Shown piece after piece: positions 1 through 6,300 of a stretch of 6,300 bases of DNA (position 1 is its first letter; each line of letters starts with the position of its first letter). Below the pieces are notes generated by a model. The model saw only the letters and a list, made by a program, of their open reading frames with translations, ran no database searches and was not told the origin of the DNA. Origin of the DNA: a virus (Duplodnaviria > Heunggongvirae > Uroviricota > Caudoviricetes); the IMG/VR virus record IMGVR_UViG_2681813321_000017. One strand, written 5' to 3'. A program made the position numbers and the translations under genes.

Positions 1-140
1 TCACAACGTGCATCTACGCCATCAAACCACGTCAAATAATCAATTATGACGCAGGTATCGTATTAATTGATCCGCATCAACTTAACGTAAAAACAACTTC
101 AGACAATACAAATCAGCGACACTGAATACGGGGCAACCTC

Positions 141-335
141 ATGTCAACGAAGAACAGAACCCGCAGAACAACAACCCGCAACATCCGCTTTCCTAACCAA
201 ATGATTGAACAAATTAACATCGCTCTTGATCAAAAAGGGTCCGGGAATTTCTCAGCCTGGGTCATTGAAGCCTGCCGTCGGAGGCTAACGTCAGAAAAGA
301 GAGCATATACATCAATTAAAAGTGATGAAGAATGA
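141..335 (+). CDS. ylcI: Small basic prophage protein, YlcI-like (DUF3950-type); predicted ribbon-helix-helix DNA-binding fold
   Basis: ATG at 141-143 with a G-rich stretch (GGGG) about 9 nt upstream; 64 aa ending at a stop at 333-335. From memory, protein matches E. coli DLP12 YlcI (64 aa). Residues RNIRFP (beta strand) - NQMIEQINIAL (helix) - KGSGN turn - FSAWVIEACRRRL (helix) fit the RHH pattern of Arc/CopG/ParD-type proteins. Confidence 0.7.
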   Translation: MSTKNRTRRTTTRNIRFPNQMIEQINIALDQKGSGNFSAWVIEACRRRLTSEKRAYTSIKSDEE

Positions 336-499
336 ACATCCCGCGTTCTTCCCTCCGAACAGGACGATATTGTAAATTCACTTAATTACGAGGGCATTGC
401 AGTAATTGAGTTGCAGTTTTACCACTTTCCTGACAGTGACAGACTGCGTGTTGGCTCTGTCACAGGTTAAGTAGTTTGAATGATTAGCAGTTATGGTGA

Positions 500-706
500 T
501 CAGTCAACCACCAGGGAATAATCCTTCATATTATTATCGTGCTTCACCAACGCTGCCTCAATTGCCCTGAATGCTTCCAGAGACACCTTATGTTCTATAC
601 ATGCAATTACAACATCAGGGTAACTCATAGAAATGGTGCTATTAAGCATATTTTTTACACGAATCAGATCCACGGAGGGATCATCAGCAGATTGTTCTTT
701 ATTCAT
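500..706 (-). CDS. ybcW: Small acidic prophage protein, YbcW-like (68 aa), function unknown
   Basis: ATG is the reverse complement of 704-706, with GGAG 7-8 nt upstream on the minus strand; 68 aa. No signal peptide or transmembrane segment evident. Recalled as matching DLP12 YbcW; position next to ylcI and ybcV fits the DLP12 gene order. Confidence 0.65.
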
Positions 707-991
707 TTTGTCGCTCCATGCGCTTGCTCTTCATCTAGCGGTTAAAATATTACTTCAAATCTTTCTGTATGAAGATTTGAGCACGTTGGCCTTACATACA
801 TCTGTCGGTTGTATTTCCCTCCAGAATGCCAGCAGGACCGCACTTTGTTACACAACCAATACTATTAATTGAAAACATTCCTAATATTTGACATAAATCA
901 TCAACAAAACACAAAGAGGTCAGACCAGATTGAAACGATAAAAACGATAATGCAAACTACGCGCCCTCGTATCACATGGAAGGTTTTACCA

Positions 992-1402
992 ATGGCTCAG
1001 GTTGCCATTTTTAAAGAAATATTCGATCAAGTGCGAAAAGATTTAAACTGTGAATTGTTTTATTCTGAACTAAAACGTCACAATGTCTCACATTATATTT
1101 ACTATCTAGCCACAGATAATATTCACATTGTGTTAAAAAACGATAACACTGTGTTAATAAAAGGACTTAAAAAGGTTGTAAATGTTAAATTCTCAAGAAA
1201 TACGCATCTTATAGAAACGTCCTTTGATAGGTTGAAATCAAGAGAAATCACATTTCAGCAATACAGGGAAAATCTTGCTAAAGCAGGAGTTTTCCGATGG
1301 GTTACAAATATCCACGAACATAAAAGATATTACTATACCTTTGATAATTCATTACTATTTACTGAGAGCATTCAGAACACTACACAAATCTTTCCACGCT
1401 AA
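992..1402 (+). CDS. ybcV: YbcV-like prophage protein (DUF1398-type), function unknown
   Basis: The track ORF 869..1402 begins at a TTG. I place the start at ATG 992 (GGAAGG at 977-982, 9 nt upstream), giving 136 aa, which matches my recollection of E. coli YbcV length; ATG 950 is an alternative without a visible SD. The gene is markedly AT-rich (a sampled 60-nt stretch at 1021-1080 is roughly 30% GC). Confidence 0.65.
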
Positions 1403-1692
1403 ATCATAACGTCCGGTTTCTTCCGTGTCAGCACCGGGGCGTTGGCATAATGCAATACGTGTACGCGCTAAACCCTGTGTGCATCGTTTTTAATTATTCC
1501 CGGACACTCCCGCAGAGAAGTTCCCCGTCAGGGCTGTGGACATAGTTAATCCGGGAATACAATGACGATTCATCGCACCTGACATACATTAATAAATATT
1601 AACAATATGAAATTTCAACTCATTGTTTAGGGTTTGTTTAATTTTCTACACATACGATTCTGCGAACTTCAAAAAGCATCGGGAATAACACC

Positions 1693-1986
1693 ATGAAAAA
1701 AATGCTACTCGCTACTGCGCTGGCCCTGCTTATTACAGGATGTGCTCAACAGACGTTTACTGTTCAAAACAAACAGACAGCAGTAGCACCAAAGGAAACC
1801 ATCACCCATCATTTCTTCGTTTCTGGAATTGGGCAGAAGAAAACTGTCGATGCAGCCAAAATTTGTGGCGGCGCAGAAAATGTTGTTAAAACAGAAACCC
1901 AGCAAACATTCGTAAATGGATTGCTCGGTTTTATTACTTTAGGCATTTATACTCCGCTGGAAGCGCGTGTGTATTGCTCAAAATAA
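1693..1986 (+). CDS. bor: Bor outer-membrane lipoprotein (lambda Bor / Iss serum-resistance family)
   Basis: ATG at 1693; 97 aa; N-terminal lipoprotein signal MKKMLLATALALLITGC with lipobox LITG-C. Sequence and length match lambda Bor / DLP12 BorD as recalled. It lies just past the Rz end on the opposite strand, as in lambda. Confidence 0.9.
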   Translation: MKKMLLATALALLITGCAQQTFTVQNKQTAVAPKETITHHFFVSGIGQKKTVDAAKICGGAENVVKTETQQTFVNGLLGFITLGIYTPLEARVYCSK

Positions 1987-2017
1987 TTGCATGAGTTGCC
2001 CATCGATATGGTCAGCT

Positions 2018-2479
2018 CTATCTGCACTGCTCATTAATATACTTCTGGGTTCCTTCCAGTTGTTTTTGCATAGTGATCAGCCTCTCTCTGAGGGTGAAAT
2101 AATCCCGTTCAGCGGTGTCTGCCAGTCGGGGGGAGGCTGCATTATCCACGCCGGAGGCCGTGGTGGCTTCACGCACTGACTGACAGACTGCTTTGATGTG
2201 CAACCGACGACGACCAGCGGCAACATCATCACGCAGAGCATCATTTTCAGCTTTCGCATCAGCTAACTCCTTCGTGTATTTTGCATCGAGCGCAGCAACA
2301 TCACGCTGACGCATCTGCATGTCAGTAATTGCCGCGTTCGCTAGCTTCAGTTCTCTGGCATTTTTGTCGCGCTGGGCTTTGTAGGCGATTGCGTTATCAC
2401 GGTAATGATTGACCGCCCATGACAGGCTGACGATGATGCAGATAATCAGAGCGGATATAATCGCGGTTACTCTGCTCAC
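2018..2479 (-). CDS. Rz: Rz i-spanin (inner-membrane spanin subunit)
   Basis: The track ORF starts at GTG 2491. I prefer GTG at 2477-2479 (minus), which overlaps the endolysin TGA stop (GTGA overlap) and has GGGGG 5-6 nt upstream, giving 153 aa. N-terminal TMD ([20 protein letters not shown]) followed by a charged, Ala/Arg/Asp-rich coiled-coil-like periplasmic domain; contains Rz1 in an alternate frame. Confidence 0.85.
2077..2259 (-). CDS. Rz1: Rz1 o-spanin, outer-membrane lipoprotein embedded within Rz in another frame
   Basis: ATG is the reverse complement of 2257-2259 with strong SD AAGGAG about 8 nt upstream; 60 aa; lipoprotein signal with lipobox VVG-C; proline-rich mature part ([15 protein letters not shown]) typical of Rz1. 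Entirely inside Rz. Confidence 0.85.
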
Positions 2480-2973
2480 TGTTGCCCCCACAAACAGACT
2501 TCACGCTCAATCTCACGACGAGTCATCAGGCCTTTCCATTGCTTACCGCCAGCGTATGTCCAGCGACGCAGCTGATCACATGCGCCTTTGATATCGCCCT
2601 GGTTTATTTTGCGAAGAAGCGTCGATGTTCTAAAATTGCCAGCACCCACATTGTAAACGAATGAGTAAAGAGCGCCGCGCGTTGTTTCCGGTATATCGAC
2701 TTTGATATACGGGTTAATTTGTCTGGCGACAGTGGCAAGGTCTTTATTCAAGAGTGCTTTGCATTCTGCTTTGGTATACGTTTTACCGAGCATGATGTCT
2801 TTTCCGGTGTGTCCGTGACATACAGTCCATACACCAACAATATCTTTGTATGGTATGTAGCTGACACCTTCCAGACCATCGTTACCACTTGGGCCAGTGA
2901 TTAACACTGATGCTATAGCAATTGCTCCGCCACCAATAGCAGCAGCAACGGCTTTTCGTAATGATGGAGGCAT
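2476..2973 (-). CDS. R: SAR endolysin (phage lysozyme, T4-lysozyme-like glycoside hydrolase; phage 21 R / RrrD-like)
   Basis: ATG is the reverse complement of 2971-2973, overlapping the holin TAA stop (TAATG); 165 aa. N-terminal Gly/Ala-rich weakly hydrophobic signal-anchor-release segment ([20 protein letters not shown]), followed by the catalytic E-x8-D-x5-T motif ([17 protein letters not shown]). Confidence 0.9.
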
Positions 2974-3188
2974 TATTCACCTCTCGCAGCCTTGCGCTTA
3001 TCTTCTTTAATCTTGAAATAAAGGTTTGTCAGGTACGTCAGCAGGCCAAATACCAGGCTACCCAGCACACCTATTGCTGCCCACTGTGAGGGAGTGACTT
3101 TATCGAGCAGCTGTAAAAACCAGTAACCGGCACTACCTGCTGAGGTGCCATAGGCGACTCCAGTTGTTAACTTATCCATGAATTTCAT
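2973..3188 (-). CDS. S: Class II pinholin (phage 21 S-type) with dual-start motif (antiholin/holin)
   Basis: The track ORF starts at TTG 3233. The real starts are ATG at 3186-3188 (MKFMDK, 71 aa) and ATG at 3177-3179 (68 aa), with SD GAGGTGG immediately upstream. Two TMDs; sequence as recalled matches S21/EssD. Confidence 0.85.
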
Positions 3189-3457
3189 AACCCCACCTCG
3201 CAGACAAAGCGGGTGTAAATTGAGGGAATACAACGTATCGCAAAAAAGCAGAAACGTAACTGACTCCGAGTCAGTGAATAACTCAGGTATTGAGTTATCA
3301 GCTAATATCGAGACTCAAAAAATGGAAAAACCAGCTCGACGGCGGGTTTAAGCTGTGTGACGAAGTAACCACTCTTAACAGCATAACCAATTTTTTACGT
3401 ACGTAAACCACTGAATGATATTTATGAGAATGCTACCGAGTGTTCAAAACATCACAA

Positions 3458-3618
3458 CAAATACATAAGAAAACCTCAACAAATAACCAATAAATAATTT
3501 CCAGTGTTATTTTTAGCCGGTTTAAATTAAACAGACGAATTATAGAACCACCATAAATAACAGCCATTAATATAAATTAGCTAATAGATTTATTTTTGTT
3601 CAAATAAGAGCCATAAAT
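3458..3618. repeat. 161-bp direct repeat, copy 1, ending at the N gap
   Basis: Matches 3640..3800 at 159 of 161 positions (mismatches at 3519 g vs 3701 a, and 3551 c vs 3733 t). AT-rich, non-coding. Confidence 0.9.
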
Positions 3619-3639
3619 NNNNNNNNNNNNNNNNNNNNN
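3619..3639. other. Run of 21 N (assembly/scaffold gap)
   Basis: Literal n characters in the sequence. Confidence 1.
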
Positions 3640-3800
3640 CAAATACATAAGAAAACCTCAACAAATAACCAATAAATAATTTCCAGTGTTATTTTTAGCC
3701 AGTTTAAATTAAACAGACGAATTATAGAACCATCATAAATAACAGCCATTAATATAAATTAGCTAATAGATTTATTTTTGTTCAAATAAGAGCCATAAAT
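3640..3800. repeat. 161-bp direct repeat, copy 2, starting at the N gap
   Basis: Near-identical to 3458..3618; begins at the first base after the N run. Confidence 0.9.
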
Positions 3801-3958
3801 AGGTTTCGATAGAAAAAGTTCAGATAAAAATAGAGATCTACTTCACAAATTAAATGAGAAACTAAAACTTACATCTTGAAATAATCACATTGATTAGATG
3901 AATATTTATCGCGCAGTGACATCATTTTTTAATAATAGTTCAAAAAAAAGGGCTCACG

Positions 3959-5056
3959 ATGAAAAAATTAACAGTGGCAATTTCTGCTGTAGCTGCATCA
4001 GTACTGATGGCGATGTCTGCTCAGGCAGCTGAAATTTATAATAAAGACAGTAACAAGCTGGATCTGTACGGGAAAGTTAATGCCAAGCACTACTTTTCCT
4101 CTAACGATGCAGATGATGGTGATACTACTTATGTTCGTCTGGGCTTCAAAGGCGAAACCCAAATCAACGATCAGCTGACTGGTTTCGGTCAGTGGGAATA
4201 TGAATTCAAAGGCAACCGCGCTGAATCTCAAGGTTCCTCCAAAGACAAAACCCGTCTTGCATTTGCAGGCCTGAAATTCGGTGACTACGGCTCAATCGAT
4301 TACGGCCGTAACTACGGTGTAGCATACGACATCGGTGCGTGGACTGACGTTCTGCCAGAATTCGGTGGCGATACCTGGACCCAAACAGATGTGTTCATGA
4401 CTGGTCGCACCACTGGTGTTGCAACCTATCGTAACAACGACTTCTTTGGTCTGGTTGATGGTCTGAACTTTGCTGCTCAGTACCAAGGCAAAAACGATCG
4501 TAGCGATTTCGATAACTACACCGAAGGTAACGGTGATGGCTTCGGTTTCTCTGCTACCTATGAATACGAAGGATTCGGTATCGGTGCAACTTATGCGAAA
4601 TCTGATCGTACCGACACTCAAGTTAATGCAGGGAAAGTTCTTCCTGAAGTATTTGCTTCCGGTAAAAATGCAGAAGTTTGGGCCGCAGGTCTGAAATATG
4701 ACGCTAACAACATTTACCTGGCCACTACCTATTCTGAAACCCAGAATATGACTGTATTTGCTGATCACTTCGTTGCTAATAAAGCTCAAAACTTCGAAGC
4801 TGTTGCACAATATCAGTTCGATTTCGGTCTGCGTCCGTCCGTTGCTTACCTGCAATCTAAAGGTAAGGATCTTGGAGTATGGGGCGATCAGGACTTAGTC
4901 AAATATGTTGATGTAGGTGCAACCTATTACTTCAACAAAAATATGTCTACTTTCGTTGATTACAAAATCAACCTGCTTGACAAAAATGACTTCACTAAAG
5001 CACTCGGTGTAAGCACTGATGACATCGTTGCTGTAGGTCTGGTTTACCAGTTCTAA
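3959..5056 (+). CDS. nmpC: General bacterial porin, OmpC/OmpF/PhoE family, NmpC/OmpD-like (prophage-borne, intact)
   Basis: ATG at 3959 with AAGG 7 nt upstream; 365 aa. Sec signal peptide with AQA|AE cleavage site; aromatic/Gly-rich beta-barrel composition; C-terminal ...VGLVYQF with terminal Phe typical of porins. N-terminal sequence matches my recollection of E. coli NmpC. Full length; no IS interruption visible. Confidence 0.9.
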
Positions 5057-5065
5057 TCTGATTAC

Positions 5066-5106
5066 GAAAAAGATATGTTGCGGGAGGCGTTGCCTCCCCA
5101 ACATAT
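5066..5106 (-). terminator. Candidate intrinsic terminator for minus-strand transcription (possible tR' of the late operon)
   Basis: Inverted repeat ATATGTTG-c-GGGAGGC (5073-5088), loop GTT, GCCTCCC-CAACATAT (5092-5106); on the minus strand the stem is followed by CTTTTTCG (T5 at 5066-5070). No T tract follows it on the plus strand. Confidence 0.4.
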
Positions 5107-5194
5107 AAGTGACTCCCTCAAGCCACTTCCTTTAGGAGCACAACCTTGCTTCTAACTATATAAACCTTCTGTTATATATTACCCTTTATTTTTG

Positions 5195-5218
5195 GGGGCG
5201 TTGCAACGCCCCATTTTT
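5195..5218 (+). terminator. Intrinsic terminator for plus-strand transcription (porin gene)
   Basis: Perfect 18-bp palindrome GGGGCGTTGCAACGCCCC (5195-5212) followed by A-TTTTT (5214-5218); about 140 nt downstream of the porin stop. On the minus strand it is followed by an A tract, so it should not terminate minus-strand transcription. Confidence 0.6.
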
Positions 5219-5245
5219 AATAACTTTCAGTAAACAATTGGCATA

Positions 5246-5629
5246 TTAATTAGAGTTATTAACAACGATATCCATCTCTAACCGGATATCTAATGCCATT
5301 AACATCCCTTCAATTATGCCCTCAGCCTTCTGTAACCTTTTCCCGATATAACCATCAGAGCAGCAATGCTTACCTGCCAGTGACATGAATGTCATACCGA
5401 CTACATAATAATCTACTAATAAATCGTGCAAATCGCTGTTGTTCTTTTTCAGACGGGCCATGCACCCGCAAATAATCATCGCGTCATCGTCACAACATTG
5501 CGGGCGAGATTTTACTTTTGAAGGAATTAATCCCTTAAAACCGGCGGCAATGGACGACCAGGTCACATCTTCATGATTATTAGCCACCCACGCTCCCCAA
5601 CGTTCAAGAACCATCTGAATATCACGCAT
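5246..5629 (-). CDS. Q: Late-gene antitermination protein Q (DLP12 QuuD / phage 82-21 type Q family)
   Basis: The track ORF starts at TTG 5644. Real ATG is at 5627-5629 (minus) with SD GGAG 7-8 nt upstream, giving 127 aa. Cys-rich putative zinc-binding motifs (PQCCDDD...ICGC...KHCC). Sequence as recalled matches E. coli QuuD. Lies upstream of the lysis cassette on the same strand. Confidence 0.85.
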
Positions 5630-5646
5630 TAACTTTCTCCACAAAA

Positions 5647-6300
5647 TCAGGCCAGCACACCAATCGCCAGTGCGCGATCGATAAAACGAAATATCAGCTC
5701 CAGCTGGGAGCCATACTTCTCTTCAAATGCCACGGTATCCGCATGCAGTTCGTCGTGGTGTTTTCTGCACAAAGGCAGCACAAAAAGGTCATGCGCTTTT
5801 GTACCCATTCCACCCTGACCATGGCCTATCAGATGATGCGGATCATCAGCTGGCTTTCCACAACATGCACACGGCTGTGTCTTAACCCTGCGCGTGTACT
5901 TTTCATTAACCCAGCGGCGACGTTTTGGGCGTAACATAAAAGACTCCGGCGACTCCGGATCCACTTTCAGCGCCAGCACCTTTTTCGCCTTATCCTGGAT
6001 GATGCTGGTGGCAGGAACCGAAGGCACAAGGTCACTTTCCCGGGTAACAGACGGCACAACAGGCTTCGGTAATCTCAGTGCCTTACGGGCTGCACTTTCC
6101 GGTAAGGCATCCGCCAGATCATTACGAATCAGCCACCAGCACAGTTCCGGCATTGTCACAACGTGACTGTCATCAAAACCGAGATCCCGACGCACAACAG
6201 ACAACACCCAGCGGGCACAGTTATCCGTTGCCATTGATTCCAGCCGTTCCGTGAACTGATCGCGCAGCTGGTTATCGCAGTGCCAGCACAGACGGATTGC
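5647..6300 (-). CDS. Cys/His-rich prophage protein, DUF968-like (YdfU-type); 5' end beyond the window
   Basis: Stop at 5647-5649 (minus). The reading frame stays open upstream of the track's ATG at 6232-6234 all the way to position 6300 (my translation of 6235-6300 gives ...[27 protein letters not shown]... with no stop), so the true start is probably off-window. C-terminal motif [23 protein letters not shown]...[11 protein letters not shown] suggests metal binding. The stop is 17 nt from the Q start. Confidence 0.6.

Follow-up and report, generated by a model that had tools for sequence, protein, structure and literature searches.

A 161-nt direct repeat at a scaffold gap in a DLP12/PA-2-type prophage late region: very probably an unmerged overlap of two contig ends

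The late region of the defective prophage DLP12 of E. coli K-12 contains quuD, the porin gene nmpC (disrupted in K-12 by an IS insertion), essD, rrrD, rzpD/rzoD, bor, ybcV and ybcW. The arrangement described below is shared by phage PA-2, at its lc porin locus (GenBank J02580), and by the complete 46-kb phage PhiR29_1 (PV340556). The latter was deposited as a complete phage with E. coli hosts; thus, the DLP12-type late region is not confined to defective prophages. A separate literature concerns duplications created by assembly. Gaps that scaffolders put between overlapping contigs lead to duplicated features (PMC5368935; bioRxiv 10.1101/2020.04.29.065847), and LINKS still joins two contigs through a gap when the estimated distance between them is negative, so that features become ‘fragmented or duplicated’ (bioRxiv 10.1101/2020.04.29.065847).

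We analyzed a 6,300-nt stretch of viral DNA (IMG/VR record IMGVR_UViG_2681813321_000017; hereafter the window). Judged by its genes, the window belongs to a lambdoid prophage of E. coli of the DLP12/PA-2 type and covers its late region: Pfam matches were obtained for Q, for a porin encoded on the opposite strand, and for a P21-type holin, a lysozyme, Rz/Rz1 and Bor. Gene content, order and orientation were the same as in DLP12 of K-12, whereas the porin gene of the window was intact and encoded 365 aa. Where closed chromosomes carry the identical locus, its RefSeq names are ylcI, ybcW, ybcV, bor, rzpD, rrrD, essD, porin, quuD and DUF968. Signs of prophage decay were seen beside the window in related closed genomes, namely a KilA-N internal stop and, in C7, a truncated DUF968 gene (locus L001, 7063-7872; locus L003, 5008-5403).

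Pfam matches on the forward strand identified DUF1398 (992-1402) and Bor (1693-1986). The lysis genes were on the reverse strand, beginning with the Rz spanin gene rzpD (2018-2479; PF03245, E = 5e-54), in which the Rz1 lipoprotein ORF was embedded out of frame (2077-2259, reverse strand; PF06085, E = 4e-20). This Rz1 ORF was missing from the RefSeq feature tables of two identical closed-genome loci. Next to rzpD were rrrD, which encodes the prophage lysozyme (endolysin; 2476-2973; PF00959, E = 1.3e-45), and essD, which encodes a phage-21-type holin (2973-3188; PF04971, P21 holin S, E = 2e-35); RefSeq gave the same two names. The essD gene had an MKFM dual start that would give a protein of 71 or 68 aa, and RefSeq lists the 68-aa form (start at 3179) for this haplotype and the 71-aa form for other haplotypes. 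Presumably this dual start resembles the holin/antiholin pair of phage 21. Divergent from the lysis genes was a general porin gene of the Lc/NmpC/OmpD type (3959-5056, forward strand; PF00267, E = 1.8e-156; porin in RefSeq), followed on the reverse strand by quuD, which encodes a Q-type late antiterminator (5246-5629; PF06530, E = 1e-53; quuD also in RefSeq), and by DUF968, a Pfam match that ran from 5647 to beyond the window. A search of Rfam at E <= 1 returned only a chance snoRNA-like match inside the DUF968 gene.

The spacer between essD and the porin gene contained the only run of Ns in the window, 21 in number (3619-3639). A repeat finder revealed a 161-nt direct repeat around this run, with copy 1 at 3458-3618 and copy 2 at 3640-3800, and the copies were identical at 159 of 161 positions. 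Both copies were flush with the Ns; that is, copy 1 ended at 3618 and copy 2 started at 3640. The first mismatch was at repeat position 62 (3519 G in copy 1, 3701 A in copy 2), and the second at repeat position 94 (3551 C in copy 1, 3733 T in copy 2). A 161-nt match at 99% identity is far beyond chance, because the next direct repeat in the window was only 22 nt long at 73% identity. A preliminary description of this DNA had given the same geometry and the same identity, and both proved exact when the repeat finder, a count of N runs and a base-by-base comparison were applied. That description took the repeat to be an overlap of contig ends that had been left unmerged, and named a chimeric join of different prophages and a real tandem repeat as other possibilities.

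Comparison to closed genomes showed how much of this arrangement is found elsewhere. A 1401-nt query that crossed the gap matched a span of 1219 nt in each of 30 closed genomes among the matches listed. The whole 6300-nt window likewise matched a span of 6118 nt at ~100% identity in the closed genomes among the matches listed, and the one that departed from this span did so through an IS3 insertion. At least 80% of the window was found in one place in 512 closed genomes. For both queries the length deficit in the closed genomes was 182 nt, which equals the sum of one repeat copy and the N run (161 + 21). We also considered whether the Ns could have replaced real bases through masking, and this was ruled out by the same sum, in that the Ns add length relative to every reference.

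The comparison was most exact with E. coli O111:H2 12A (CP077479). Base by base, window positions 1-3618 showed 0 mismatches to this chromosome, and positions 3640-6300 showed exactly 2, which fell at 3701 and 3733 and were the same two mismatches that separate the repeat copies. In CP077479 coordinates, the left and right parts overlapped by exactly 161 nt. Because the only mismatches to CP077479 were at 3701 and 3733, copy 1 represents the reference allele and copy 2 the deviant one. When positions 3619-3800 were left out, the remaining sequence aligned with PhiR29_1 by blastn without a gap over 6118 of 6118 columns (99.64% identity), and with the PA-2 lc locus at 98.3% over 2.8 kb. Dropping one copy together with the Ns, 182 nt in all, thus restored gapless collinearity with independent closed E. 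coli chromosomes.

We then asked how often the 161-nt segment occurs in other sequences. Of 5,426 closed E. coli genomes, 1,308 contained it; the matches covered 1318 places in 1309 records, and no genome had more than 2 (median, 1). The segment occurred twice in 9 of these records, whereas CP077479, the nearest closed genome, had it once. Four near-identical closed-genome loci that we fetched (L001-L004) each held it once, in a form identical to copy 1, and the same was true of 9 of 9 IMG/VR contigs and 2 of 2 metagenome contigs. Neither PA-2 nor PhiR29_1 has the segment twice. In C7 and TW14425, two of the 9 records with the segment at two places, the local essD-porin spacer had its normal length of 597 bp, and inspection of these two records revealed no second copy within 3 kb of the locus. 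Including six more divergent loci, the spacer measured 572-597 bp in 10 of 10 closed-genome loci fetched. A tandem copy was found in none of the 1,308 segment-bearing closed genomes (two of the 9 double-place records being inspected locally), in none of the 36 phage records whose coverage of the spacer query reached 80% or more, and in none of the 9 IMG/VR and 2 metagenome contigs. A junction pattern of copy end, 0-30 nt and copy start gave 0 matches in GTDB representatives, a weak test since E. coli has about one representative there.

Taken together, the comparisons point to an unmerged overlap of two contig ends from one locus, written twice at a scaffold gap, and we place the probability that the repeat is of this kind and not a real feature at roughly 0.93. 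The preliminary description had favored the same reading, and two results speak for it: collinearity becomes gapless once the 182 nt are removed, and the segment is single-copy in independent assemblies. The position of the copies also favors an overlap artefact, because copies flush with the Ns are required by an artefact but would be a coincidence for a real repeat. Accounts of negative-gap false duplications by SOAPdenovo2, LINKS and ALLPATHS-LG describe similar cases (PMC5368935; bioRxiv 10.1101/2020.04.29.065847), and here too the near-identical copies abut the Ns. As in other scaffold-gap false duplications, removal of one copy and the gap gave the reference sequence, and a nearby small ORF was doubled. 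Peculiar to this window, relative to such known cases, was an overlap with two mismatches, which would reflect error or heterogeneity.

The events behind such an overlap can be proposed as follows. The genome itself would hold one 161-nt copy within an AT-rich essD-porin spacer of ~590 bp. Low coverage would have broken the assembly in this spacer, such that two contigs ended inside it and shared a 161-nt overlap. The contig ends would have stayed unmerged because they disagreed at two bases. A scaffolder would then have joined the contigs and written a positive gap of 21 Ns, a number that is not a common fixed placeholder and may be an estimated gap size. Copy 1 would accordingly be the 161 nt with which the left contig ends, with G at 3519 and C at 3551, the allele of all other assemblies. 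Copy 2 would be the 161 nt with which the right contig opens, so that the same locus is needlessly written again, with private bases at 3701 (A) and 3733 (T), and the 21 Ns between the overlapping ends have no counterpart in the references. GC content in the locus is lowest at the overlap (24-26%, versus 43% for the window). Because the 161-nt segment is not a genomic repeat, this GC trough may plausibly explain why the contigs broke here.

The two mismatches deserve separate consideration. No exact match to the full 161 nt of copy 2 was found in 5,426 closed E. coli genomes, the best match being 159/161, and neither 3701 A alone nor 3733 T alone on this background was matched exactly in the same genomes. 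An exact pattern for the copy-2 haplotype gave 0 matches in GTDB representatives. A degenerate pattern that admitted all four haplotypes gave 2 metagenome matches and 9 IMG/VR matches, and every one of these carried G/C. Among 6,279 informative bases, both of the sole differences from CP077479 fell in copy 2 (P = 6.6e-4 under uniform placement), and the 6,118 bases outside copy 2 showed no difference. Both also lay no more than 94 nt from the start of the right contig, which is 2,661 nt long (P = 1.2e-3 under uniform placement); beyond position 94, this contig showed 0 differences from CP077479 over 2,567 nt. We infer that the copy-2 bases most likely arose as errors in the consensus, or from minor heterogeneity among reads, where coverage of the contig end was thin.

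Some features of natural variation bear on the same two bases. In natural relatives, the segment varied at 33 of its 161 columns, and both variant positions were among these columns (P ~0.04 by chance). In addition, the T at repeat position 94 occurs in a distant haplotype that is 85% identical. These comparisons of relatives hint weakly that the copy-2 variants could be real and not random errors. If so, they would mark a new haplotype of the hypervariable spacer segment, carried in the strain or in the sequenced culture by a second near-identical copy of a PhiR29_1/DLP12-like prophage or by a subpopulation variant, or, less likely still, they would belong to a true 182-bp tandem duplication. 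Altogether we consider it unlikely that the copy-2 bases are real in any of these ways.

A join between two related prophages of the source genome, with one contig from each and the mismatches as differences between paralogues, would explain why the contig ends resisted merging, since two mismatches would have blocked it. The placement of both variants in naturally polymorphic columns fits such a join, as do the several lambdoid prophages present per E. coli genome (the window matched 8 places in CP077479) and the double occurrence of the segment in the 9 closed records noted above. However, the left and right flanks were 100% identical to a single contiguous locus of CP077479. A foreign right contig should diverge along its length, whereas the differences were confined to its first 94 nt, and the 2,567 difference-free nt that follow would demand a second prophage with practically no divergence and with its genes in the same order. 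The single occurrence of the segment in CP077479, the absence of the A/T haplotype, and of either variant base alone, from the closed genomes, GTDB representatives, metagenome contigs and IMG/VR, and the normal spacers of the two double-copy genomes inspected also argue against a cross-copy join, and we regard it as very unlikely. The chimeric join of different prophages suggested earlier thus lacked support in the flanks and in the distribution of differences. The related suggestion that the lysis cassette and the porin/Q region might not be linked as drawn found none either, given that their order is that of the canonical DLP12/PA-2 late region. Because any second prophage would need to be near-identical with the same order, the question of linkage becomes moot.

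Least probable of all is that part of the regulatory spacer of the porin gene was truly duplicated in tandem with a 182-nt period, 21 bases being unread or masked and the substitutions acquired later. A duplicated unit made of the 161 nt and 21 adjacent nt would look the same as the observed arrangement, and masking as Ns does occur for some stretches of one collection, but the unread stretch would have to match the non-repeated spacer exactly, 2 substitutions would be needed in 161 nt versus none in the 6,118 other bases (the same P = 6.6e-4), and the closed genomes, phage records, IMG/VR contigs and metagenome contigs searched for a tandem copy, together with the weakly informative GTDB representatives, contained no such arrangement. 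This fallback of the preliminary description therefore has no relative on its side, as adjacent copies occurred nowhere among the sequences examined. Were the duplication true, the distal CRP site would be shifted further from the porin promoter.

Returning to the unmerged overlap as the preferred reading, the spacer can be described with one copy removed. It then measured 597 bp from the RefSeq ATG of essD (3179) and 588 bp from the ATG of the 71-aa form (3188). The intergenic region of ~545 bp reported earlier holds if the upstream TTG at 3233 is taken as the essD start (543 bp), which was evidently the start used, and does not hold with the ATG starts (588-597 bp). Exact sequence matches were found to both CRP-binding sites annotated in PA-2, the distal site of lc at 3353-3373 on the forward strand (J02580 1067-1087) and the proximal site at 3830-3850 on the reverse strand (J02580 1363-1383), and the 161-nt segment sits between them. 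No part of the spacer varied more than this segment (25% GC), which had 88% identity to PA-2 (J02580 1172-1332) in a locus that is 98.3% identical overall, and versions of it that were 85-92% identical occurred in many closed genomes. A scan of the spacer for consensus promoters and terminators found none.

The spacer also contained a 44-aa ORF on the reverse strand (3433-3567; MAVIYGGSIIRLFNLN...), which had no Pfam match and is annotated as a ‘hypothetical protein’ in PhiR29_1. A second reverse-strand ORF at 3600-3749 reads through the Ns and would be spurious, the artefact having repeated part of the 44-aa ORF. Gene callers may report this second ORF as a false paralogue of the first.

If the repeat is an unmerged overlap, the scaffold as drawn has a holin-porin spacer that is 182 nt too long, and the false repeat is open to misreading as a regulatory tandem repeat or as a substrate for recombination. 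The value of the finding is one of quality control only: false duplications at scaffold gaps are a standard artefact, and this prophage region is well known. The practical correction would be to delete positions 3619-3800 and to retain the G and C of copy 1 unless the reads disagree. Once the duplication is removed in this way, the sequence comparisons given here allow the lysis cassette and the porin/Q region to be taken as truly linked.
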